A stretch of DNA of 64,000 nt from an uncultured Actinomycetes bacterium (GTDB lineage Bacteria > Actinomycetota > Acidimicrobiia > Spongiisociales > DATADW01): the NCBI GenBank assembly GCA_963824995.1, contig CAWGRK010000010.1, positions 1 through 64,000 of the forward strand, given 5' to 3'. Position numbers and translations under genes: made by a program. Below, piece after piece: positions 3-15,025 of this stretch. A model generated the notes under the pieces. That model was not told the DNA's origin, ran no database searches, and saw only the letters and a list, made by a program, of their open reading frames with translations. How positions within the stretch are numbered: the first letter of the stretch is position 1; each line of letters starts with the position of its first letter.

Positions 3-602
3 CTACAGGTATCCCATTTCCTGGGCCTTGGCGAACGCCTCGGTACGGTTTCTGGCCCCGAGCTTGACGATGGCGGATGACAGGTAGTTGCGTACGGTTC
101 CTTCGGCGAGGTGGAGCCTTTGCGCGATCTCCACGTTGGGATGTCCTTCACCGACCTCTCGCAGGACTTCTCGCTCCCGGTCAGTGAGTGGGTCGCTGCC
201 GGTCCATGCGGACACTGCGAGCTCCGGGGCGATCACACGATTGCCTGCTGCCACCCGCCGGAGGGTGTCGGCTAGATCTTCGATGGGTGAGTCTTTGAGG
301 ACGTATCCAGACACCCCGGCATCGAGCGCCCGCCGCAGATAGCCGCTTCGGGCGAAGGTGGTCACGATTACGACTCGGACCGTCGGATGGTCCTTGAGAC
401 GAGAAGCCAGCTCGAGTCCCGTCATTCCTGGCATTTCGATGTCGGTGAGAAGGATGTCCGGCTCATGCTCTGCGACAGCTGCCAAACCCTGCTCGCCATC
501 TTCGGCGACAGCGACTACCTCGATGTCCGGTTCGAGGTCGAGGAGTCCCGCAAAGGCTCCTCGCACCATGGCCTGGTCTTCGGCGAGGACGACGCGGATC
601 AT
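3..602 (-). CDS. NarL/LuxR-family response regulator (DesR-like)
   Basis: REC domain (LAEDQ...LLTDIEMPG...VTTF...LKD) plus C-terminal LuxR HTH (LTDREREVL...GTVRNYLS). Confidence 0.95.
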   Translation of the reverse strand: MIRVVLAEDQAMVRGAFAGLLDLEPDIEVVAVAEDGEQGLAAVAEHEPDILLTDIEMPGMTGLELASRLKDHPTVRVVIVTTFARSGYLRRALDAGVSGYVLKDSPIEDLADTLRRVAAGNRVIAPELAVSAWTGSDPLTDREREVLREVGEGHPNVEIAQRLHLAEGTVRNYLSSAIVKLGARNRTEAFAKAQEMGYL

Positions 603-1721
603 GAAGAACTTCCACCGAATGGCATGTCGATCCGTAGCTCTGTCCCGCCTGTCACTCCGGGTCCGAACGTGAGGGTTCCCCCTGCGGCGATCACACGTTC
701 GCGCATGCCCTGAATTCCCGAGCCGGTTCCCTTGGTGGGTCCGATCCCGTCGTCAGTCACCGTTAGTGATACTCCCCCGTCCTGGCTGTCGATTCGGGCC
801 TCCACCGTGCCAGCGTTGGCATGGCGCAGAACATTGGTGACCGCCTCGCGAAGTCCCAACGCCAGAACGTTCTCGACCGAGGGTGCCAGATCGACCTCCA
901 AGTCTCCGAGCGTCTCCAACTCGGTGCCTGCCGCTGCGAGCGCATCGCGGGCAACGGCGAGCTCGTCGAGCAGCGACGCCTGATGCCATCCAGCAACGCT
1001 TTCCCTGATCGAAGACAGTGCATCGCGAGCTATGCGTTCCACCTCATCGGCTTCCTCTGTGGCGCGACGCTGGTCCGACGGGGCCAGTCTTTGGACGAGT
1101 TGGCTTCGCACGATGATGGCGGTGAGGGCCTGGCCTGCGATGTCGTGGACGTCGCGAGCGATCCGTTCCCGCTCGGCGATGGTGGCGAGATGAGCGACTC
1201 GGCGGTTCTCAGCCCGGAGCGCGACCGCGCGATGGTCCCGTGACACATCATGGAAGACGGCGGATCCAATGACCCAGATCATGATCACCGGGATGAATAT
1301 GAAGATCCGAAACGGCCAAGGGATCGAACTCAGGAAGAAGCCGGTCAGAGTGAGGACGGTGATCACCGACAGTCTGAGTCGGAGCGTCTCCTGAGTGGCT
1401 GACCTGGCAACGAGAGCGGCGGCGTAGATGGGCAGCGCCATGATCGCTGTCGAGTCGAAGGGTGCTGTCGCCGAGTGCCAGCAGCATCAGGACAGTTGCT
1501 CCCCCGATATCCCAACCTCGTATTTCCGAGACGACAAAGGTGGGGAGGGCGACGGCAACCACTCCGACCGCGAGGACCCAATCCTCGGGACCGGCGTCGG
1601 GGGAGAAGATCGGTCCGATGAGGATGAATGCGAAGAAGACCAGGGGTGCCCAACGCGAGAAACCGGAACGCCTCGTGTCGAGGCGTTCCGAGTTCGCGAG
1701 TCTGACTGTCGTATCGTTCAC
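599..1721 (-). CDS. Membrane sensor histidine kinase, HisKA_3 (DesK-like); one frameshift near 1470
   Basis: TM helices, H-box ERERIARDVHD, N-box EAVTNVLRH, DDGIG, GSGIQGMRER. The N-terminus lies in ORF 1248..1883, with a GTG start overlapping the permease stop. Confidence 0.88.
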
Positions 1722-2440
1722 ACTTCCGCGGAACGGTACGCCAACGCTGCTGCGATCGCTCCCACGATCGTTGTTCCCACGAGATAGGCGACGTGACCCC
1801 ACACTGCTCCGCCTTCGACCTGCGCCAGCGCCAGTTGTGCCAGGTGATAGGGCGGGAGGTACACCGCGATTTCTCCGAGCCACGTCGGGAGCATCTCGAG
1901 CGGGAACCAGAGGCCTGAGAGAATCACCGAAGGAATGAGCACCGCGTTGAGCACCGACGTTGCGGCGTTGGGACTGAACCTCGCCCCAACAGCCAGGGAG
2001 AACAGGCTGAATGGCAAGGCTCCGAGTACCAGCACACCGATGACACGCAGGACCTGCAGGACGTCCAGAGGTCCAGCGGTGAGACGGGCGACCAGGGTTA
2101 TCCCTGCCAGGGTGACGATCGCATACGGCAGTGCTGCCGTGACTTTGGCGGACAGCGTCACGCCAAGCGGCGTGCCGTCCGCTCTCTTGACGCGGAGCCA
2201 GCCTCGCTCTCTGGCGTCGGCGAGGCCGATACCCGGGTTCATCAGGACCACGGACAGCACACCAAACGCCCCGTAGGTGGCCAACGACTCAACGCCGAAG
2301 CCTCCCTCGTCGCCGAACATCGTTGCGAACAGTGCAAAGAATGCCACTGGCATCAGCACCGTGAAGAAGAGAGCGGTTGGCTCCCTGACGATTCCCAAAA
2401 GCTCGTCTCTCACCTCTGTGCGAAAGATTCTTGTGTTCAT
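1718..2440 (-). CDS. ABC-2 type transporter permease
   Basis: Six hydrophobic segments, RERGWLRVKR and SGLWFPLEMLP motifs; coupled to an ABC ATPase. Confidence 0.92.
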   Translation of the reverse strand: MNTRIFRTEVRDELLGIVREPTALFFTVLMPVAFFALFATMFGDEGGFGVESLATYGAFGVLSVVLMNPGIGLADARERGWLRVKRADGTPLGVTLSAKVTAALPYAIVTLAGITLVARLTAGPLDVLQVLRVIGVLVLGALPFSLFSLAVGARFSPNAATSVLNAVLIPSVILSGLWFPLEMLPTWLGEIAVYLPPYHLAQLALAQVEGGAVWGHVAYLVGTTIVGAIAAALAYRSAEV

Positions 2441-3333
2441 GCGGCTACCTCCTCATGGTGGGTCAGTGCGACGAGGACCTCTTCGAGGCTCGCCGTCGCC
2501 ACGGTCAAATCGTTGGCCTCGGGGTCGAGGTCGAGCAGCGTGCTGACGACCTGCTCACTGTCGGTCGCTGCGATCACGGTGCGGCCGTCACGAAGCTCCA
2601 CCGAGTGCACCGAGTCGAGCGCTCTGATCACACTCACCGGTACCTTCGTCTGGACTTCGATCCGACGGTCGGGGAGCGTCCGACGCAGCTCGTCTGGCGT
2701 CCCTTCCGCGACTACTCGTCCGCGATCAACCACGACGACCCGATCGGCGACTGCGGCCGCCTCGTCCACGAGATGCGTCGTGATGAGCACACCGGCTCCG
2801 TTGTCGAGACGCCGCCGAATCGTGTTCCAGAACCGACGCCGTGCCTCCACATCGAGTCCTTCGGTGGGCTCGTCCAGTACCAGCAGAACCGGATCGGCAA
2901 CAAGCCCCATCGCGAGCTGCAACCGCTGCTGCTGTCCGCCGGAGAGCTTGGCCGCCCGCCGTTTCTCCAGGCCGGCCAGGCCCATCTCGGCGATGGCTTG
3001 GCTGGCTGCTTCCGGGGGACAACCCCGGCGGGCGGCCGCACCGCCGACGATCTCACCGACGGTGAGTGACCGCGGAAAACCGACCGCCTGCTGGACGACA
3101 CCGAGCCTGCGGCGGGTCTCGGCGCTACGAGGGTTGCCACCTGCCACCTCGATGAGGTCGGCGTTGCCTTCGATCAACCCGATCACATTGCGGACGAGGG
3201 TCGTCTTACCGGCCCCATTTGGGCCGAGAAGTGCGACACACTCCCCCGCCTTGACAGTCAGATCGACTCCGGCGAGAGCCGTGTGGTCACCGTATCGGTG
3301 AACGAGACCTCGTACTTCGAGCACATGTTCCAT
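2437..3333 (-). CDS. ABC transporter ATP-binding protein
   Basis: Walker A GPNGAGKT, signature LSGGQ, Walker B LVLDEPT; GGAGG RBS upstream. Confidence 0.96.
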   Translation of the reverse strand: MEHVLEVRGLVHRYGDHTALAGVDLTVKAGECVALLGPNGAGKTTLVRNVIGLIEGNADLIEVAGGNPRSAETRRRLGVVQQAVGFPRSLTVGEIVGGAAARRGCPPEAASQAIAEMGLAGLEKRRAAKLSGGQQQRLQLAMGLVADPVLLVLDEPTEGLDVEARRRFWNTIRRRLDNGAGVLITTHLVDEAAAVADRVVVVDRGRVVAEGTPDELRRTLPDRRIEVQTKVPVSVIRALDSVHSVELRDGRTVIAATDSEQVVSTLLDLDPEANDLTVATASLEEVLVALTHHEEVAA

Positions 3334-3853: not shown

Positions 3854-5410
3854 GTGCATGACCGAGCCAAGTCGCTGGTTCGTTCGGTCAGACCGAAGGA
3901 AACAAGCGGCGTGTCCCGACGACAAGGGATTGCGCTGGCTGCTGTGCCTGCTGGCTTGCTCGGTGTTCTCGCAGTTTGGTCCCAGGCTGACGTCGCTGGC
4001 TCGTCGCTCTGGCTGATCGCCATTGACATCACCGTCGGGCTGGCCTTCATCGTCAGCGCCATGCTTTCTCCCGCGGCGACGCGTGAGCGGCTGCTGTTCG
4101 GATCGGTCGGCTCCCTGTGGCTGCTCGGGTCGGTGTTCCCCGCCGCCGGCCTGACGCACCAGGCCGTTCTCGCCATCGCCCTTCTCGCTTTTCCCTCAGG
4201 CAGGCTCGCCGGGATCGTTCGCTGGATCCTGGCCGGTCTGGCTGTGCCGCTTGCATTCGGTCTCATTCCACAGCCCGGCGTGGCCGTGCTCTTGGCAACA
4301 ATCGGCCTGGTCGCCGCCCGAGGATCCGCCCTGGGGAGATTCCCCGCCGCATCTGCCATAACGCTGGCGGTGGTGCTCGCAGGTTCTTGGTGGCTTTCCC
4401 GCGGCACCGCCGTCGGATACAACCCCCAACTGGCGCTGGTCGCATACCAGGCAACGTTGCTCATGATCGCGGCCGCCTTCCCGTTCGCCGCCCGCGAGGC
4501 CATAGCGAGCCGGGCCAGGGTCGTTGATCGGATCCTTGGTGAGGAGACAACGGCCGGGCTCGCAGGGTTCGGGGTCGTGTTGGCGGACGCCCTCAGGGAC
4601 CCGAGCATTCAGGTCCTCCGGCCCGAAGACGCTCCAGCATCATCCCGGAACCGGCTGGAGGTATCAGATGCAGGGTCGCTCGTAGCGGTGATCGACTATT
4701 CGGCACCCACCCTGGACGACCCGACCATCGCCGAAGCCGTCGCCTCGGCGGTGCGCATCGCCGTACGACGGGAACAACTCGAACGAGAACTCGGAGCCCA
4801 GCTCTTCGACCTCGAATCGGCCAGGGCCCGCTTGGTGGCTGTCGCCGACCGTCAAAGGGAAGCAACGGCCAACAGGCTTAGGAAGGACGTAGTGACTCCA
4901 TTACGGCAAGCCACTTCGGACCTGGAGGAGGCAAGGGCGAGGGTGGAGGATGGGGAAGCCAGCGATGCCCTCGGGATCGTCGTCACTGAACTGAACACGG
5001 CCCAAACAGAGCTGATGGGGTTGGTGTCAGGCATCCCTTCCAGCCGACTAGGCGGCGGTCGACTGCGGGATGCGATCCGGGCCATGGCCCAGCGGAGCGG
5101 TATCCCTGTCGAAGTCACAGCCGCGCCTATCGAAGCGGACGTGGACACGGAGACCACGCTTTTCTACGTATGCTCGGAAGCGTTGGCCAATGCCATCAAG
5201 CACGCCGGCGCCCACAGAATCGACATTGTTCTCGTCGAGGAAGGCGACCTCATCGCCCTCAAGATCTCCGACGATGGTCGAGGCGGTGCCGACCCTTCCG
5301 GCACCGGACTAAAGGGTTTGGCCGATCGGGTCGCCAGTCGGGGGGGCCGGCTCCGAGTCGATAGTCCGCCCGGAGCCGGCACCACGGTCACGACGACCCT
5401 GCCCCGCTAA
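3854..5410 (+). CDS. Membrane histidine-kinase-like protein with intact HATPase but no phospho-acceptor His
   Basis: Multiple TMs; EALANAIKHA, DDGRGG, GTGLKGLADRV present. The H-box position reads ADRQREATANRLRKDVV. Start may be GTG 3911. Confidence 0.88.
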   Translation: MHDRAKSLVRSVRPKETSGVSRRQGIALAAVPAGLLGVLAVWSQADVAGSSLWLIAIDITVGLAFIVSAMLSPAATRERLLFGSVGSLWLLGSVFPAAGLTHQAVLAIALLAFPSGRLAGIVRWILAGLAVPLAFGLIPQPGVAVLLATIGLVAARGSALGRFPAASAITLAVVLAGSWWLSRGTAVGYNPQLALVAYQATLLMIAAAFPFAAREAIASRARVVDRILGEETTAGLAGFGVVLADALRDPSIQVLRPEDAPASSRNRLEVSDAGSLVAVIDYSAPTLDDPTIAEAVASAVRIAVRREQLERELGAQLFDLESARARLVAVADRQREATANRLRKDVVTPLRQATSDLEEARARVEDGEASDALGIVVTELNTAQTELMGLVSGIPSSRLGGGRLRDAIRAMAQRSGIPVEVTAAPIEADVDTETTLFYVCSEALANAIKHAGAHRIDIVLVEEGDLIALKISDDGRGGADPSGTGLKGLADRVASRGGRLRVDSPPGAGTTVTTTLPR

Positions 5411-6960
5411 TCGATCTTGCGCCAGGGCTCGATCAGCTTCTCCCCCGCCCAGGTGTCCACTGACGCGCCGCCCTGGAGGTCGCTGAAAATGATGTCGTCG
5501 CCGTCCACCTCCCAGATCATGGAGTAGGTCGGGACGGGGAAGCAGGGCGGCTCGCAACCGCTCAGCTCCGAATGAACCTCCGCGTCGTAGACGAAGTAGA
5601 CGACGCCATCGCTGCCCCGCAGGTAGCCGGCGTCTAGCACCGAGTCGAACGTGACGACGTCGTCGAATGTGATGTTCCCGCAGTCCTTGCCGGGACGATC
5701 CAAGGGGCGACAGGTCATCGCATAGGTTCCGTCCTCGATCAGCAGAGACCACACGCCGGACCATCCCGACGCGTTGTTGTGGCCGGCCGAAATCACGTCC
5801 GCCTCGGACACTTCAACCCGGTAGAGCCCGTTGGGAATCTCTGCCACGTCGGCGGGGGGCGTTTCCGGCCGCGCCTCGGCTTCCGTCGTCGTCTGCGAGC
5901 ATTTCGCGGCGACATCCGGCACATAGGTCCCTCCGGACCCGGCGGCGACGGCCTGGATCCGTGCCAGAATTGGCCCGATCTCAGGGTCTCCGGCCATCTG
6001 GTCGATGACCGGAGCCAGCAGATCGCCCAGCCCAGCGACTTGCTCGGGAGTGGCTTCCAGGAAGCGCATCCCCGACTCGCAGAGCTGCATTGCCGGCGTG
6101 GTCTCGTCGTAATCGGCCTCGACTGATGCCTGGACCCCTCGCTCGGCGGCCTCACGGACCCAAGTCTGCTGTTCTTCGGTCAATGCCGCGAAACGTGACT
6201 CGCTGATGCTCAAGACGAACATCTTGGGCCAGAGGACGACGTTGGAGGTCACGTTCCCGACCTCGGTGGTGTAGCCGTTGGCCTGGTACTGGGGTATGTC
6301 GAACTCGACCCCTTGCAGCTCTCCCGCGAGGATCTGCTCCCGCCACTCGAACCCGACGTTCACCGGCTCAGCTCCCAACGCCTTGATCGCGTCGGTCTGA
6401 ACCGGTGAGTTGAAGACCCGGAAGCGGGCGCCGGCCCAGTCTTGGGGATCGACAAGTGGAGTGCTGGCGAACGGGCGCCGCAATGGCCCGACACTCAAAC
6501 CGAGCCCGACCACTCCGGACCCATCCAAACTCTGCAGCATCTCCTCGGCAGCCAAGTCAGAAACCAGAGCTTTCTGCGCCTCATAGCTGGTGATCGTCAT
6601 CGGCGCCTCCACCGCCTCCAGACCGGCGATGCCGGCTTCCGAGAAAGCCCGGGTCGAGGGCCAGCCGCCATCGATCTCTCCCGATGCGATCCCGGCCACC
6701 AATTTCGACTCGGCATCCGCCGCCCCATCACCGTAGGTGTCATTCACCTCGACTTGCAGCCGGCCCTCCGAGACCTCACCCAAAGCTTCGACAAATGCCT
6801 GCACTCCATAGGACTGGCCGTTGCTGTTGACCCCATCGATCGAGGCCAGCTGCAGCACCACGGTGTCTCCCCCGGCTTTGTCCACGTTCTCGGCGGAACA
6901 CGCCGCAAATAGGCCCACCACGACGATCGTTGCCCAGGTCCTGCGCGACATCGCCTTCAT
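5407..6960 (-). CDS. TRAP (DctP-like) substrate-binding lipoprotein with C-terminal extension
   Basis: Lipobox LFAAC; FVEALGEVSEGRLQVEV, DWAGARFRVFNSP, ALGAEPV, LTEEQQTWVREAA; extra domain of about 150 aa. Confidence 0.85.
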   Translation of the reverse strand: MKAMSRRTWATIVVVGLFAACSAENVDKAGGDTVVLQLASIDGVNSNGQSYGVQAFVEALGEVSEGRLQVEVNDTYGDGAADAESKLVAGIASGEIDGGWPSTRAFSEAGIAGLEAVEAPMTITSYEAQKALVSDLAAEEMLQSLDGSGVVGLGLSVGPLRRPFASTPLVDPQDWAGARFRVFNSPVQTDAIKALGAEPVNVGFEWREQILAGELQGVEFDIPQYQANGYTTEVGNVTSNVVLWPKMFVLSISESRFAALTEEQQTWVREAAERGVQASVEADYDETTPAMQLCESGMRFLEATPEQVAGLGDLLAPVIDQMAGDPEIGPILARIQAVAAGSGGTYVPDVAAKCSQTTTEAEARPETPPADVAEIPNGLYRVEVSEADVISAGHNNASGWSGVWSLLIEDGTYAMTCRPLDRPGKDCGNITFDDVVTFDSVLDAGYLRGSDGVVYFVYDAEVHSELSGCEPPCFPVPTYSMIWEVDGDDIIFSDLQGGASVDTWAGEKLIEPWRKID

Positions 6961-7089
6961 CGTCTCTCCTATCGCCGACACTCGCCCAAAGGTATGGGCG
7001 CGGCCAGCATGTGCCCAGCGTGCCAGCTCAGTGGTGATCTGAGGAAAACACGGATGCGCCGGGCAACCGTAGGTGAGTTGAATTGCGTC

Positions 7090-8790
7090 ATGACGGAGGT
7101 CCAGCGACCACGGCGCTACTTGCGGGTGGGAGTCTGGACGGCAACCGTCCTGGTCTCGGTCCTGGCAGTGGCGAGTTTCCTGTCGGCGACACAAGGCGGC
7201 ATCCTCGCTTCACTCGGTCGAGAGCCCGCGGTTGGGGCCGTGGTTTTAGCGATGGCCGGTCTGATCCAGGTCTCGTTGGCGGCCTGGATGGTGGCGAATC
7301 GGCATCCAATGGCATCGATCGGCCTGGCAGTTCTCGGCGCCGCCATCACGTTGCCTTGGTGGTCCGTGTGGTCCGCCCTTCCCGACGGAGTGAGTGCGAA
7401 GCTCCTCGCCTTGGCGCCGCTGGCCTTGCCGGGAACAGCCCAAGTAGCCCTTCGCTGGTCGGCGGAACGACCGGCATCGCCGGTACTCAGCTGGGTGTAC
7501 GTCATGACCGTGGCGGCTTCGCTGACCCTGCTCGTCGGATACAACCCGTTCGATGACCCGGGTTGCGGATGGGTGTGCGTCGACGTCCCGGCGACGGCGC
7601 GGGACCTGATCTCCACGCGCGGGTCGGTGCTGGTGACCGCCTTGATCACGACCGTGGCGGCGGGACTCGTCGTCCGCTCTATGACCCAGGTCCAACCAAG
7701 AGTCGCACCACGATTGTTGGGCGACGCGGTGATGGTGTCCCTTGGCCTCCTTGTCGGCTATTGGGTCATCCGCTGGGCCAACTGGGGAGAGCAATCCGGA
7801 GAGGCTCTGATCCTGCCTTTCGTCGCACAAGCCGTGGTTGGCGGCGCGGTCATCGCTGTGACCATCCGTTCGAGGAGAACCCGCGAAGCCGTGACCCGAA
7901 CCATTGCCAGACTGAACGAGGCTGAGGCGGTGCTTGGTGACAAGGAGTCGGCCCTGGTCGGAGTTCTGTTCGCTCTCCCCGAGGGCGACGGTTGGGTTGA
8001 TTCAGCGGGTCTGCCGGTCAAAGAGAACCTAGAGCACGAACGCTTTGTAACAGTCTCCGACAGCAAAGGGCCCCTGCTCCGCATGCCAATCGAGCGCGGA
8101 CGCGATCCCGTTGACGTCCTCGATGCGCTGACCCCGGCAGCGCGTCTGTCGTTGAAGAACACGCAGCTGTCCGCCATCACCCGGGCCCGTATGGCAGAAG
8201 TCCGAGCTTCGCAGGCACGGGTGGTGGCTGCATCTGACACCGAACGGCGACGAATCGAACGGGACCTGCACGACGGCGCACAGCAGCGGCTGGTCAGCGC
8301 GGCCCTCTACTTGAGTGTCGCCCGCACCCGCCTCGCCCCTGAGCTCGCCGCGCTGGACCGCGCCGAAACGTCGCTGCTGGACGCTTTGCATGAGTTGCGC
8401 CGTCTCGCCCATGGGACGTTTCCCGACAGCCTCGAGACCGAAGGCTTGGGGACGGCTTTGCAGCAGCTCGCCGCCGACTCCCACGTTCCAATAGCCCTGG
8501 ACATCGACGGCATCGGGCTTCTTTCACCAGACGTAGCGCGGGCCATTTACACGACTGCGGCCACCGCGGTCCTGGCCGCGGAGGTGTTGCCTCCTGCCGC
8601 GATGGTGCGCATGATGGCGGTGACGAACTCCGACTCCGTTCGATTCTCGGTACAGATTCAGCGGGACACGATCGATAGTCTCCCCGACTTTTCCGATGTC
8701 AAGGACAGAGTCGGCTCTCTGGGCGGGACATCCACGATCTCCACGACCGGCGAAGGTGCCTCGATCGAGGTGGTGCTCCCATGCGGGTAG
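7090..8790 (+). CDS. Membrane histidine-kinase-like protein with intact H-box but degenerate ATPase domain
   Basis: About 8 TMs; ERRRIERDLHDGAQQRL; no N-box or DxGxG. Start uncertain (6994, 7054 or 7090). Confidence 0.87.
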   Translation: MTEVQRPRRYLRVGVWTATVLVSVLAVASFLSATQGGILASLGREPAVGAVVLAMAGLIQVSLAAWMVANRHPMASIGLAVLGAAITLPWWSVWSALPDGVSAKLLALAPLALPGTAQVALRWSAERPASPVLSWVYVMTVAASLTLLVGYNPFDDPGCGWVCVDVPATARDLISTRGSVLVTALITTVAAGLVVRSMTQVQPRVAPRLLGDAVMVSLGLLVGYWVIRWANWGEQSGEALILPFVAQAVVGGAVIAVTIRSRRTREAVTRTIARLNEAEAVLGDKESALVGVLFALPEGDGWVDSAGLPVKENLEHERFVTVSDSKGPLLRMPIERGRDPVDVLDALTPAARLSLKNTQLSAITRARMAEVRASQARVVAASDTERRRIERDLHDGAQQRLVSAALYLSVARTRLAPELAALDRAETSLLDALHELRRLAHGTFPDSLETEGLGTALQQLAADSHVPIALDIDGIGLLSPDVARAIYTTAATAVLAAEVLPPAAMVRMMAVTNSDSVRFSVQIQRDTIDSLPDFSDVKDRVGSLGGTSTISTTGEGASIEVVLPCG

Positions 8791-9425
8791 TCATCGCGGA
8801 CGATGTCATGCTTATTCGCTCCGGTCTGGCCCGATTGCTGGCCGAGGCCGACGTGGAAGTCGCAGCGGAGGTGGGGGATGCCGAGAGTCTGCTGCGGGCC
8901 GTGGCCATCGAAGAACCGGATGTGGCAATAGTCGACATCCGCATGCCGCCCACTCACACCGACGAAGGCCTGATCGCGGCGAGGAAGATTCGGCAAAGCC
9001 ATTCGGGCACCGCAGTGGTGTTGCTCAGCCAGTATCTCGAGCCGCTCTATGCCGAGCGCTTGCTGGCCGATCAGCCGGGTGGGCTGGGTTACCTCCTGAA
9101 GGAACGGGTTTCAGACATAGCCGTCCTGGTCGACGCGTTACACCGGGTGGACGACGGGGAGTGTGTGCTCGACCCAACCATCGTGGCGAGGCTGATGCAG
9201 CGGAGAAAACCAAACTCGCCACTCAACCGGCTCACCCCCCGAGAAAGCGAGACCCTCGCCTCCATGGCGGAGGGACGTTCCAACGCCGGCATCGCCAAAC
9301 AGCTCGGAGTCAGCGAGCGGACGGTGGAAGCCATGTGTGCCCAGGTCTTCCAAAAGCTCGACCTCGCTCCCTCACGAGATGTGAACAGGCGGGTCCTAGC
9401 AGTCTTGACCCTCCTCCGTGGTTGA
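8781..9425 (+). CDS. NarL/LuxR-family response regulator
   Basis: IADD...VDIRMPP...LLSQY...YLLKER receiver domain plus LuxR HTH; overlaps the kinase stop. Confidence 0.96.
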   Translation: MRVVIADDVMLIRSGLARLLAEADVEVAAEVGDAESLLRAVAIEEPDVAIVDIRMPPTHTDEGLIAARKIRQSHSGTAVVLLSQYLEPLYAERLLADQPGGLGYLLKERVSDIAVLVDALHRVDDGECVLDPTIVARLMQRRKPNSPLNRLTPRESETLASMAEGRSNAGIAKQLGVSERTVEAMCAQVFQKLDLAPSRDVNRRVLAVLTLLRG

Positions 9426-11795: not shown

Positions 11796-14168
11796 TCAGG
11801 GAAGGGGAGCAACATCCGTCGTCCCGTGAAAACGTTTGATCACTGGCCCGGTCGGATCCGGCACCACGGCGAACGTGCCTGCGGCTGCAAGATCGGTCGA
11901 CGAGGTCCCGATTAGCACTTCGATCGACCCGGGCTCGACGACGTATTCAAGGTCGCGGTCGTAGAACCCGAGCTGGCCGACCGGGACCTGAAAGGTCGTC
12001 CTGCATGAGGCGCCAGCCAACAGATGGACTCGGGCGAAGCTCTTTAACTCCAGCACCGGACGGGTCACGCTGGCCGACGGGTCCCTGGCATAGAGCTGGA
12101 GGACTTCATCTCCTTCCCGGTTGCCCATGTTCGTGACTGTCGCTGCAGCGGTGATCACCCCATTCCAGGGCACCTCGTCCGTGTTCAGCTCGAGGTCTGA
12201 CACCGTGAAGGTGGTGTAGCCCAGACCGTGCCCGAACGGGTAGAGCGGGGTGACTTCGCCGTCGACGTAGTCGCCCTTCCAGTGCGACCTCCCCCCGGAG
12301 ATCTTGTGTCCGTAGTAGACGGGGATGTGCCCGGCCGATCGCGGGTGCGAGATCGGCAGTTTTCCGCCCGGGCTCACCTCACCGGTGAGCACGTCGGTGA
12401 TGGCCTCGGCTCCCTCTTCGCCGGGTAGCCAGGCCTGGACGACGGCGGCGCTGTGCTCATGGGCCCACTGACTACCGCAGGGTCGGCCGGTGACCAAGAC
12501 GAGCACGACCGGCGTCCCCGTCTCGATGACTGCCCGGACCAGATCCTCCTGGACGCCGGGAAGATCCAGCGAGATACGGTCGCGGCCCTCGCCGGAAGTG
12601 CACTCACTCGTAAGACCCGCCTTGTCTCCCATGACCATCACAGCCAGGGCTGACCCCCCGGGCTAGGGCGACCGCCTCCTCGAACCCGTCGCGCGACTCA
12701 CTGTCGACGTCACACCCCCTGGCGTAGCCGACGCGGTCCCCCAGACGGTCGCGGAGGGCATCGAACACGGTGCGCGCTTGCTTCATGGAGCCTTCGAGGC
12801 TCACCTCTCCGGAGAACGGCACCCCGAACACGTTGTCGCCCGATTGCATGTCGACCAGTGCTTCGATGTGGGCCGGGTAGGCGTAGTCACCGAAGAGATT
12901 CCGAGCGTCGTGGGCGTTGGGCCCGATCACGGCGATCGACCCGGCTCCAGAGGTAATGGGGAGTGTGCCGTCGTTGGCCAGGAGAACCATGCTCTTCACG
13001 GCGATCCGCCGGGCCAGCTCGCCCTCTGACAATGCCTCGATCTCGGTCGAGACGGCGTCGGGATCTACGAAGGGCTCTTCGAAGAGGCCCAGTTCGAACT
13101 TCGACAGCAGAACTCTCCTCACCGCAGTGTCGACGACACCGGGATCGATGGCCCCGGTCTTGACGCCTTCGATCAGTGGGGTCCCGTAGCAGTCGGTCCC
13201 GGGGAGCTCGACATCGATCCCGGCGGTGAGGGCGGTCACTGCCGCGTCCGTGGCGTCATCGTGCCACGTGGTGATAGCTGGCCAGTTGCCTGACGGCGAA
13301 GTAGTCGGACACCACGGTCCCTTCGAATCCCCAATGCTCCCTGAGGAGCACTGTGAGCAGATCACGGTCCGCACCGCAAGGTATCCCGTCTAGCTCGTGA
13401 TAGGCGTTCATCACCGACCATGCCCCGGCGGCCACGACCGCTTCGAATGGATGGAGGTAGACCTCCCGCAGCTCTCGGGGGGGCAGATGGGGAGGGGCCC
13501 AGTTCAATCCTCCCTCGGAGGCGCTGTATCCGACGAAGTGCTTGGCGGTCGCCACCACACCCTCGGTCAGATCGTCGCCTTGCAGGCCCTCGACAAAGGC
13601 GGTTCCCATCCGGGCGACGAGGTAGGGGTCCTCTCCGAAGGTCTCCTCGGTCCGGCCCCAGCGCGGGTCTCGTGCGACGTCGAGGACCGGAGACAGTCCG
13701 TGGTGTGCGCCCATGGCGCGCATCTGCCGCCGTACCGCGGTGGCCATCTCTCGGGCGAGATCGGGGTCCCAGGTGGCGGCCACACCGATCGCCTGCGGGT
13801 AGACGACGGCGTGGCGCGACATCAGCCCCGAGCAGATCTCCTCGTGGACGATTGCCGGGATGCCGAGTCGGGTCTCCTCGATGAGGAAGCGTTGGATCTC
13901 GTTCGCAAGGCGGGCGGCGTCCTCCGCCCCGAGGTCGCTGGCCCCGGAGATCCGGGTCACATGGCCGAGACCACCACCGAGCAGGTCCCGGGCCTTTTCG
14001 TCGGAGAGGCTGTCCTTCCTCGGTCAGCTGGAAGACCCAGGCGCTCCCCAATTGTGCGACCTTCTCCTCGAGAGTCATCATCTCCAGCAGACTCTCGACC
14101 CGCTCGCTCACCGAGAGGCCGGGATCGCGGTAGGCCGGCTGCTGGCCGTCGACGGTGACCGCGGTCAT
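11796..14168 (-). CDS. Glycoside hydrolase family 3 (beta-xylosidase/glucosidase, BxlA-like); frameshifted
   Basis: MTLEEKVAQL, TRLGIPAIVHEE, RDPRWGRTEETFGEDP, ATAKHF, WGFEGTVVSDY, GEGRDR, PLYPFGHGLGY, Fn3-like tail, spread over four ORF fragments. Confidence 0.92.
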
Positions 14169-15025
14169 CCCTTCACTCCTCCTGCGGTGAGCCCGCTCAC
14201 GATCTGACGCTGTGCGATGAAGTAGAAGATCAGGGCCGGGATCATGGCCAGCGTGGTGTAGGCCAGGATCATCGCGGTGTCCGTAACGAACTGAGCCGAG
14301 ATGTTGTTGATGCCGAGTGGCAGCGTCCATTGCTGCGGTTGGATCAACACCAGCAACGGAAGCAGGAAGGCGTTCCAGCTGCCCACGACGGTGAGTACCG
14401 CGATCGTGCTCAGAACCGGGCGGCAGAGAGGGAGCATGACCGACCAGTAGAAGCGCAGCGGGCCGCAGCCGTCGATTGCAGCTGCGTCTTCGAGATCACG
14501 GGGGATGCTGCGAAAGAACGGGCGAAGGATCACGATCGAGAGCGGGAGCCCGAATGCCGCCTGAGGGAGGGCGATGCCGAGCGGGCTGTTTAGCAGGCCG
14601 GTCTGGCGCAGGGTGATGAACAGCGGAAGGATGGCCACCGCCACGGGGAACAAAAGCCCCAGAGTGAACAGGGCGAACACGAACTCTCGCCCCCGGAACC
14701 GGTAGCGGGCGATCACGAACGCAGCCAGGGACGCCGCGGGAAGGACGAGGGCGGTTGTGATCAGCGCAATCAGCACGCTGTTCCTCACCCACCCATAGAA
14801 GCTCGGGTCGGTGAGGGCGGTCTCGTAGTTGGTGAAGATCCACGGATTCGGGAGTGCCACCGGGTCGGCGGCGAGTTGTGCGTTGCTCCGAAACCCACCG
14901 ATGATCGAGAAGCTCAGCGGTACCACGATCACCAGCAGGACCACGACTGCGATCACATAGAGCAGCCCACGGCCGAAGTCGAAATTCCGGTGCGTGCTGC
15001 CGGTACGAGCAGTAGCTGCAGTCAT
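14165..15025 (-). CDS. Carbohydrate ABC transporter permease (MalG-like)
   Basis: EAA loop LEDAAAIDGC; C-terminal GLTAGGVKG. Confidence 0.95.
   Translation of the reverse strand: MTAATARTGSTHRNFDFGRGLLYVIAVVVLLVIVVPLSFSIIGGFRSNAQLAADPVALPNPWIFTNYETALTDPSFYGWVRNSVLIALITTALVLPAASLAAFVIARYRFRGREFVFALFTLGLLFPVAVAILPLFITLRQTGLLNSPLGIALPQAAFGLPLSIVILRPFFRSIPRDLEDAAAIDGCGPLRFYWSVMLPLCRPVLSTIAVLTVVGSWNAFLLPLLVLIQPQQWTLPLGINNISAQFVTDTAMILAYTTLAMIPALIFYFIAQRQIVSGLTAGGVKG

Follow-up and report, generated by a model that had tools for sequence, protein, structure and literature searches.

Reciprocal loss of the phospho-acceptor histidine and the ATP site in two adjacent paralogous sensor kinases of an actinobacterial four-gene cassette: a probable heterodimeric histidine kinase

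The window analyzed here, a 64,000-nucleotide stretch of DNA from an uncultured bacterium of the Acidimicrobiia (assembly GCA_963824995.1, contig CAWGRK010000010.1, positions 1 to 64,000 of the forward strand), derives from contig 10 of a metagenome-assembled genome (MAG; 85% complete, 2.9 Mb). It contains a cassette of four genes that encode two sensor-kinase-like proteins, A (3854-5410, plus strand, 518 aa) and B (6994-8790, plus strand, 598 aa), a DctP-family solute-binding lipoprotein (5407-6960, minus strand) situated between them, and a response regulator of the NarL/LuxR type (8781-9425, plus strand, 214 aa). Both kinase genes are uninterrupted open reading frames (ORFs), and each protein lacks what the other retains: A has an intact ATP-binding site and no phospho-acceptor histidine, and B has the histidine and no ATP-binding site. 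The binding-protein gene, which was missed in the initial annotation of this DNA, lies tail-to-tail with A and is divergent from B, while the start of the regulator gene overlaps the B stop codon by 10 nt. The intergenic stretch between the divergent binding-protein and B genes amounts to some 35-130 bp and varies with the B start that is chosen, the gene starts being uncertain: the position of about 7090 originally given for B corresponds to Met33 of the ORF that opens at 6994 and may be the true start, and a database entry of 499 aa that is identical to A along its length suggests that A begins about 19 codons later (about 3911). The regulator contains Response_reg and GerE domains (Pfam), with receiver residues D7, D8 and D52 and a GerE helix-turn-helix; an adjacent NarL/LuxR-type regulator with a receiver aspartate (D52) is a feature of HisKA_3-class kinases.

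Within the A translation, the phospho-acceptor position is occupied by an arginine (R343, codon 4880-4882, plus strand) in the segment ATANRLRKDVV, as is evident from the translation, the profile alignment with B and an alignment of 121 family sequences. The three ATP-binding boxes are present as EALANAIKHA (residues 442-451), DDGRGG (473-478) and GTGLKGL (483-489), all in a catalytic and ATP-binding (CA) domain (5054-5407, plus strand) delimited by Pfam and the family alignment. The B translation includes ERDLHDGAQQRL (residues 422-433) with H426 (codon 8269-8271, plus strand; translation, Pfam and family alignment), the predicted phospho-acceptor, which is found within an LHDGAQQ sequence that also carries the DxxxQ motif (D427 and Q431); the segments AIYTTAATAVLAA (517-529) and QRDTIDSLPDF (556-566) fall in its pseudo-CA domain (8434-8787, plus strand; family alignments and models). 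A complete HisKA_3-class kinase requires both the phospho-acceptor histidine and the N, G1 and G2 boxes; A has only the boxes and B only the histidine. Pfam agrees, finding HATPase_c (PF02518) alone in A (433-517, E 3.7e-10) and HisKA_3 (PF07730) alone in B (417-476, E 1.6e-9); HisKA_3 was not found in A, nor HATPase_c in B, by the same scan. The only NCBIfam matches of either protein are below threshold (MctS, UhpB, LiaS and MadS) and span the dimerization and histidine phosphotransfer (DHp) and CA domains in both. The initial annotation had described A as combining an intact ATP-binding domain with a His-to-Arg exchange in the H-box, B as combining a perfect HisKA_3 H-box with loss of the N, G1 and G2 boxes, and both as long uninterrupted ORFs with polytopic hydrophobic N-terminal regions; the translations and the domain scan bear out each of these statements, and HATPase_c and HisKA_3 are distributed between the two proteins as that description implies.

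The same division is found among relatives of the two proteins. Relatives of both were drawn from a collection of 5.8 billion proteins, in which each has a large family, and the figures hold for the matches listed: of the 120 A relatives (42-100% identity), all but two without a Pfam match have PF02518 or PF13581 and none has PF07730, and the 120 listed relatives of B all carry PF07730 and never PF02518. In the 121 aligned A sequences, the column equivalent to the histidine is arginine in 101, glycine in 11, leucine in 3, lysine in 2, histidine in 1 and a gap in 1, with two further rare residues, while the flanking residues D332, R335 and L342 are near-invariant. The following column (His+1), which holds the aspartate of the DxxxQ motif in HisKA_3 domains, is only fairly rarely aspartate (16 of the 121), and the residues common at His+5 do not include glutamine. 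The ATP-binding residues of A (N446, D473, G475, G477, G483, G485 and G488) are invariant in 48/48 sequences of alignment A1. For B, E417, R420-I421-E422 and D424-L425-H426-D427-G428-A429-Q430-Q431 are invariant in 49/49, and the 121 B relatives all have the histidine, while their ATP boxes have degenerated: the N-box asparagine column is alanine in 107, and the G1 aspartate and G2 glycines are lost, their positions being variable. The B pseudo-CA domain nevertheless retains its alpha/beta fold, with an invariant DRVGxxGG motif and an invariant C-terminal Pro-Cys (PCG, residues 596-598, window 8779-8787).

A and B are, as judged from profile comparison, full-length paralogs, the membrane region included. 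Alignment of the A1 and A2 profiles with hhalign gives a probability of 99.7% over 470 columns, from the membrane region to the C-terminus, and pairs R343 of A with H426 of B and the A CA domain with the C-terminal domain of B. Each protein has a polytopic membrane sensor of some 6-8 hydrophobic helices, which no Pfam family covers, followed in A by a small beta-rich juxtamembrane domain, a His-less DHp domain and an intact CA domain, and in B by a juxtamembrane domain, a canonical HisKA_3 DHp domain and a degenerate CA domain. The AlphaFold models are confident, with a mean predicted local distance difference test score (pLDDT) of 85.6 for A and 82.5 for B. In a Foldseek search, the cytoplasmic half of B matches solved DHp+CA structures, including DesK (3gig/5iuk), over ca. 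204-226 aligned columns with target-normalized TM-scores of 0.44-0.49, whereas the match of the B profile to the PDB by sequence is confined to the DesK DHp domain; the ATPase fold has thus been kept without the ATP-binding residues. Taken with the hhalign result and the models, both proteins retain full DHp+CA folds, unlike domain-split kinases. Two further observations concern B. An extra loop just after the GYNP motif common to A and B contains two invariant cysteines (C191 and C195; 7564-7578); these and the invariant C-terminal cysteine may belong to a disulfide, metal or redox site. In addition, a 724-aa relative that is 92% identical to B (P0126) combines HisKA_3 with Response_reg and GerE, and is either a B-regulator fusion or a read-through call over the overlapping stop and start.

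Five genomes of the same genus, and the same-family genomes searched, yielded no A ortholog, the best matches reaching 34-37% identity over the C-terminal half. Local synteny was therefore unusable, and large collections were searched instead, from which the source names of A and B relatives include Kribbella, Streptomyces, Propionibacteriaceae, Jiangellaceae and Acidimicrobiales. In a scan seeded with A (one genome per species, 80 loci), all ORFs were scored with the A1 and A2 hidden Markov models (HMMs) and the motif columns were read. A His-less A-family ORF with intact ATP boxes is present in 17 of the 80 loci (L020-L030, L032, L035, L040, L059, L062 and L087), carried by Acidimicrobiia, Ilumatobacteraceae, Jiangellaceae, Kribbella, Nocardioides, Streptomyces, Solirubrobacteraceae, unclassified Actinomycetota MAGs and Chloroflexia MAGs. 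A B-family ORF accompanies it in each of the 17, with LHDG visible in 16; the B gene of L020 is cut by the contig end, and those loci include two, L023 and L029, that are frameshifted. Canonical kinases only (LHDG with N, G1 and G2 boxes) are found in the remaining 61 of the 80, and L042 has an A-like partner that retains the histidine next to an ATPase-dead B. Set apart from these is an otherwise canonical Streptosporangium kinase (L072, 6324-8732) with glutamine at the phospho-His position (RDLQDG); it has no B-like neighbor in 16.7 kb and is placed inside the canonical clade of the tree described below, and is an independent case of His loss in a lone pseudo-kinase.

The reverse scan, seeded with B, covered metagenomes with A2 and a generic H-box pattern and returned 80 loci, of which 54 are ordinary kinases, a consequence of the generic pattern, and served as controls. 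A B-type ORF is present in the other 26. Where at least 2 kb of upstream DNA is available, 14 of 15 such loci have an A-like partner (L100, L101, L114, L115, L126, L131, L133, L134, L141, L147, L159, L169, L171 and L173); in the other 11, the contig breaks off within 900 nt of B on the upstream side. The residue at the His position of the 14 partners is other than histidine in 10 and histidine in 3 (L169, L171 and L173), and the fragment in L100 does not reach it. Both scans therefore recover a pair of neighboring kinase-like genes that is conserved along with a single regulator, and the co-occurrence of His-less and ATPase-dead partners on which the initial annotation would have stood or fallen is conserved from either side. 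Because they are a family trait, the complementary losses lie far beyond chance.

All domains, those that have lost a function included, are under purifying selection, as illustrated by pairwise Nei-Gojobori estimates of dN/dS (omega) for each domain. In the least saturated pair (L022/L024 from Kribbella, dS 0.19-0.48), omega for A is 0.27 in the membrane region, 0.29 in the juxtamembrane domain, 0.13 in the DHp domain and 0.26 in the CA domain; the corresponding values for B are 0.28, 0.41 and 0.16, with 0.45 in the pseudo-CA domain. More distant pairs give omega of 0.15-0.62, except for the B pseudo-CA domain in the WIN/L021 pair (0.80), but WIN/L021 and the other distant pairs are saturated (dS >1, one undefined) and were not relied on. 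Omega is below 1 in every domain, including the His-less DHp of A and the pseudo-ATPase of B, so that the crippled domains of both proteins are maintained, with the B pseudo-ATPase more relaxed than the A ATPase. The proteins might alternatively be dismissed as decaying duplicates, or as artefacts of MAG assembly, with no joint function. The source genome is an incomplete MAG, and some related MAG loci (L023 and L029) are frameshifted, as such an explanation would predict; yet both ORFs in the window are intact, the same substitutions recur in isolate genomes (Kribbella and Streptomyces) and in more than 100 database clusters, and the partners have co-diversified under purifying values of omega. 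An explanation by decay or artefact is accordingly highly improbable, and the strain-specific decay that the initial annotation had named as its refutation is contradicted by the family-wide conservation.

The history of the pair was reconstructed from 134 near-full-length ORFs using the cytoplasmic HMM columns (FastTree, LG+gamma, midpoint root), leaving out fragments of <430 aa and those whose HMM coverage did not reach from position <=240 to >=500. All A partners group in a single clade (n=29, support 0.99), made up of 26 His-less proteins together with those of L042, L169 and L171, and the B partners form two neighboring clades (n=32, support 0.83; n=6, support 0.89), whose union as a single group has a weak support of 0.45. 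The same loci make up corresponding sub-clades of A and B, indicating that the partners diversified together, and relatives that have a membrane region of this type but are encoded by a single gene are canonical in every respect. A and B descend from one HisKA_3 sensor kinase by duplication, each having lost a different essential function. Intermediates of two kinds exist: in L042, L169, L171 and L173 the histidine is kept in A beside an ATPase-dead B, and in L030, L131 and L028 a His-less A stands beside a B with near-complete boxes (ENAH/ENMH, DGG, GGLE; ANAY, DGG, GGLD).

These data also bear on the proposal that no phosphotransfer takes place between A and B, and that A is a regulatory pseudokinase of the DivL, RetS or PsmA kind which steers B allosterically, B being mainly a phosphatase or phosphotransferase and the regulator being phosphorylated from elsewhere. 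There is precedent for its components, in that His-less kinase-like proteins with roles outside the phosphorelay exist (PsmA, PMC12963549; pseudo-histidine kinases, PMC12632262; accessible portions of both) and HisKA_3 phosphatase activity is, according to the accessible text of the latter, independent of the histidine (PMC12632262). Such a model has no need of the invariant ATP-binding residues of A or of the invariant histidine of B, however; the cassette contains no other conserved kinase, and the single-loss intermediates argue for a catalytic cycle that A and B share. We regard a purely allosteric role for A as unlikely.

The conserved unit, which recurs in soil bacteria that are only distantly related, is the full set of four genes: A, the DctP-like lipoprotein, B and the NarL/LuxR regulator. 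BLAST searches of the loci with the window binding protein and regulator recover the order A(+), binding protein(-), B(+), regulator(+) throughout L020-L030. Identity of the binding protein is 47-65% in L020-L029 and 38% in L030, where its C-terminal part is encoded separately. The regulator (63-78% identity) follows B in every one of the 10 loci that are long enough to include it, L020 being cut before it. In four Streptomyces loci the order is instead B(-), binding protein(+), A(+), regulator(+); L035 and L042 have A, binding protein(-), ..., B, regulator, and L059 has A, B, regulator. The metagenome loci include A, binding protein(-), B, regulator as well as A, B, regulator, binding protein(-).

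The binding protein itself is assigned to the DctP family by Pfam (PF03480, E 1.3e-18). Its ORF spans 5407-7194, and the start is most likely MKAMSRR at 6960, from which a signal peptide and a lipobox cysteine follow; a signal peptide ending in a lipobox-like cysteine is found in 6 of the 9 loci examined, the pattern being unmatched in the other 3. The C-terminal ca. 130 residues (window 5407-5800) constitute a cysteine-containing extension of no known family (no Pfam match), which is conserved across L020-L029 and has an ORF of its own in L030. The genome of the window has two DctM genes on other contigs, each with an adjacent DctP, in comparison with which the cassette DctP is a third, divergent copy (70 bits versus 225 and 148). 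No DctM was found near the cassette DctP, and the cassette protein is an orphan without transporter genes of its own. TRAP (tripartite ATP-independent periplasmic) transport was considered as its primary role and rejected, as no DctQ/M gene is linked. A binding-protein gene that is conserved beside kinase genes and lacks its own transporter genes is, in turn, a feature of solute-binding-protein-dependent kinases. The conserved binding protein is more likely to supply the signal input than are two separate sensors. The AND gate over two membrane sensors suggested in the initial annotation is without specific support; the paralogous membrane regions probably form one joint receptor.

The structure of a putative A:B complex was predicted from A 296-518 and B 376-598, each with its own family alignment. 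The model scores 0.64, in comparison with 0.00 for the best of 3 controls; in calibration, 116 of 157 solved complexes reached the mark, as did 2 of 215 mismatched pairs. A model of the heterodimer proposed in the initial annotation passes these controls, with the reservations given below. Each computational check named in that annotation (domain scan, co-occurrence, dN/dS and complex model) came out in its favor. At least 95% of contacts are shared between the runs, with a partner pLDDT of at least 78. The confident interface joins A 306-390 with B 389-471 in a shared DHp four-helix bundle, and a helix of the A CA domain (484-495) rests on the B DHp domain, while the B pseudo-CA domain contributes no residue to the confident interface. 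A and B probably constitute an obligate asymmetric heterodimeric kinase in which the ATPase domain of A would phosphorylate the histidine of B in trans. A kinase that is split between the two proteins without a stable heterodimer would be a different matter: homodimers of A and of B would meet transiently, or as A2B2, with the A ATPase phosphorylating the B histidine and free B acting as a phosphatase. The motif complementarity fits this arrangement equally well, as does the retention of the DxxxQ motif by B alone, and CheA3 and CheA4 act in such a manner, with modeling suggesting that splitting gives ultrasensitivity (accessible portion of PMC3591291). It is nonetheless improbable in view of the DHp domain, the dimerization element, which is complete and strongly conserved in both proteins and in A, where it is His-less, has the lowest omega of the A domains in the least saturated pair (0.13), most easily explained by pairing with the B DHp domain; the predicted interface, too, is a shared four-helix bundle.

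A number of observations weigh against an obligate A:B heterodimer. The controls for the complex prediction were unrelated proteins rather than kinases or the A:A and B:B pairings, so that the score is no evidence of a preference for the heterodimer over homodimers, and it may reflect the likeness of the model to solved histidine-kinase dimers rather than specific binding. In some lineages one function is kept in both partners, and the pair is thus not obligatorily complementary everywhere. The B pseudo-CA domain evolves faster than the A CA domain (omega 0.38-0.45 versus 0.26-0.33, and 0.80 in the saturated WIN/L021 pair). The regulator gene follows A in the Streptomyces-type order, so gene order is no consistent pointer to B as the phosphoryl donor, and one B-type locus with 2 kb of upstream DNA (L110) has neither an A gene nor a binding-protein gene. 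Finally, the module is rare, B-family matches (E<=1e-60) being found in 2 of the 301 sampled genomes of the class, the genome of the window included.

Heterodimerization in the cell, trans-phosphorylation, phosphotransfer to the regulator and a part for the binding protein are what we infer from the balance of this evidence. The module would comprise a membrane-anchored DctP-like lipoprotein, the paralogous kinases A and B and the NarL/LuxR regulator, with A and B joined by their DHp helices in an obligate heterodimer that is intrinsically asymmetric. The ATP-binding domain of A would phosphorylate H426 of B in trans, and phosphorylated B would hand the phosphoryl group to D52 of the regulator, for which B presumably also offers the docking surface; B, and not A, would provide the phosphatase activity by virtue of the DxxxQ motif that is lost in A. 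The orphan binding protein would probably present a ligand by docking on the joint membrane or extracytoplasmic surface of A:B. An analogy is provided by maltose-binding protein and Tar, in which a monomeric binding protein reportedly touches both subunits of a dimeric receptor asymmetrically. Whether the cassette represents an undescribed receptor class, horizontally scattered over Actinomycetota and Chloroflexota, in which a monomeric lipoprotein is read by an asymmetric heterodimeric kinase that evolved out of a homodimer through duplication and the reciprocal loss of the phospho-acceptor and the ATP site, is in our estimation an evenly balanced question; the two kinds of intermediate would, as part of the same proposal, mean that either loss (of the histidine or of the ATP site) can come first.

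The surroundings of the cassette give no indication of its targets, since the flanking genes differ among the window, L022 and L040 and no regulon can be deduced from them. Upstream of A, positions 3-3333 on the minus strand are occupied by a separate, complete and unrelated two-component and ABC unit, in a layout typical of a transporter-linked two-component system. According to the ORF and domain scans, its two-component part is a LuxR-type regulator (3-602) with a canonical HisKA_3+HATPase_c kinase (from 599), and its ABC part pairs an ABC-2 permease (1718-2440) with an ABC ATPase (2437-3333), all on the minus strand. The single LuxR regulator of the initial annotation is thus single within the cassette, with a second regulator of that type lying just upstream. 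Further downstream (11796-14330, minus strand), a GH3 gene seems to be divided over at least two overlapping ORFs, one (11796-12641) with the end of GH3_C and an Fn3-like domain and another (12604-13374) with the end of GH3_N and the start of GH3_C, next to an ORF without a Pfam match (13362-14330); it is either a frameshifted gene or pseudogene, or a MAG assembly error.

The accepted picture of a histidine kinase is that of a homodimer with both the histidine and the ATPase in each subunit, and the questions of cis versus trans autophosphorylation and of one subunit firing at a time have been worked out with engineered heterodimers. If the reading of A and B as an obligate heterodimer is correct, they would be a natural and conserved pair in which A is the sole ATP binder and B the sole acceptor, leaving one possible direction of phosphorylation and parting the kinase and phosphatase functions onto different subunits. 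If the evenly balanced proposal of a new receptor class holds as well, such a pair would have made permanent the half-of-sites asymmetry and the trans-autophosphorylation that are only transient in normal kinase dimers, and the single-loss lineages, which record a path from homodimer to obligate heterodimer, would amount to a textbook evolutionary ratchet. There are consequences for annotation as well, given that A and B are labeled 'sensor histidine kinase' or 'ATP-binding protein', though neither is predicted to work alone, and that counts of 'incomplete' or 'pseudo' kinases would score both as dead. The conserved orphan DctP-like protein points, in addition, to an unexplored signaling use of TRAP-type binding proteins in soil Actinomycetota.

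Among known systems, Rv0600c/Rv0601c/TcrA of M. tuberculosis is reportedly a split histidine kinase, and it was put forward in the initial annotation as an analogy for A and B. The comparison is a loose one, for both proteins here keep their full-length architecture. Further split kinases are CheA3/CheA4 of Rhodobacter sphaeroides (PMC3591291, accessible portion) and Hik36/Hik43 of Synechocystis (PMC7656254). A and B resemble all three in that the histidine and ATP-binding functions reside on separate polypeptides, here at the level of motifs, which in those systems have to cooperate for one regulator to be phosphorylated; in each of the three, however, either half is without the domain of the other altogether, whereas A and B each have a complete sensor-DHp-CA architecture with a membrane sensor of their own, and are paralogs with reciprocal point degeneration. 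In canonical HisKA_3/NarL systems (DesK-DesR, NarX-NarL, LiaS-LiaR and MctS-MctR) there are likenesses too, the B DHp domain resembling DesK by sequence and the cytoplasmic half by fold, A and B matching the MctS, LiaS and UhpB models weakly and the regulator being NarL-like; unlike in these systems, neither A nor B alone has both a histidine and an ATP site. The AbrC1/AbrC2/AbrC3 locus of Streptomyces coelicolor is similar in placing two paralogous kinases and one NarL-type regulator at one actinobacterial locus, but it has no binding-protein gene and its kinases are complete; AbrC1 and AbrC2 both autophosphorylate on their own canonical histidines in vitro (PMC4428217, accessible portion), and were for that reason rejected as the known counterpart of A and B.

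The closest functional precedent is FasB/FasC/FasA of group A Streptococcus, also two adjacent sensor-kinase-like proteins with one regulator. As given in the accessible portion of PMC12675982, two-hybrid evidence exists for the heterodimer and not for homodimers, the kinase domain of FasC (a proposed pseudokinase) is dispensable, and FasC H246 is needed and is the proposed site phosphorylated by the FasB kinase domain. FasB and FasC belong to another kinase and regulator lineage, in the Firmicutes, and are likened to A and B here by description; FasB still has candidate histidines, the degeneracy is not reciprocal, and there is no associated solute-binding protein. With solute-binding-protein-dependent sensor kinases, the cassette has in common a binding-protein gene that stands beside kinase genes and is not transporter-linked, but its putative partner in the cassette is a heteromeric kinase whose membrane sensors are polytopic; DctP-family proteins are named solely as transporter components in the accessible portion of one review (PMC8050422). 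A survey of HisKA_3 domains counted 56 of 16,025 as lacking the histidine (PMC12632262, accessible portion), and since Pfam does not recognize A as HisKA_3, counts of this kind would miss it. No description of this kinase family, or of full-length paralogous kinases that have degenerated reciprocally, was found in the open-access literature, a search that could miss subscription-only papers. In comparison with the known heteromeric and split histidine kinases, the features that the A/B cassette adds are a conserved orphan binding protein and a set of natural evolutionary intermediates.

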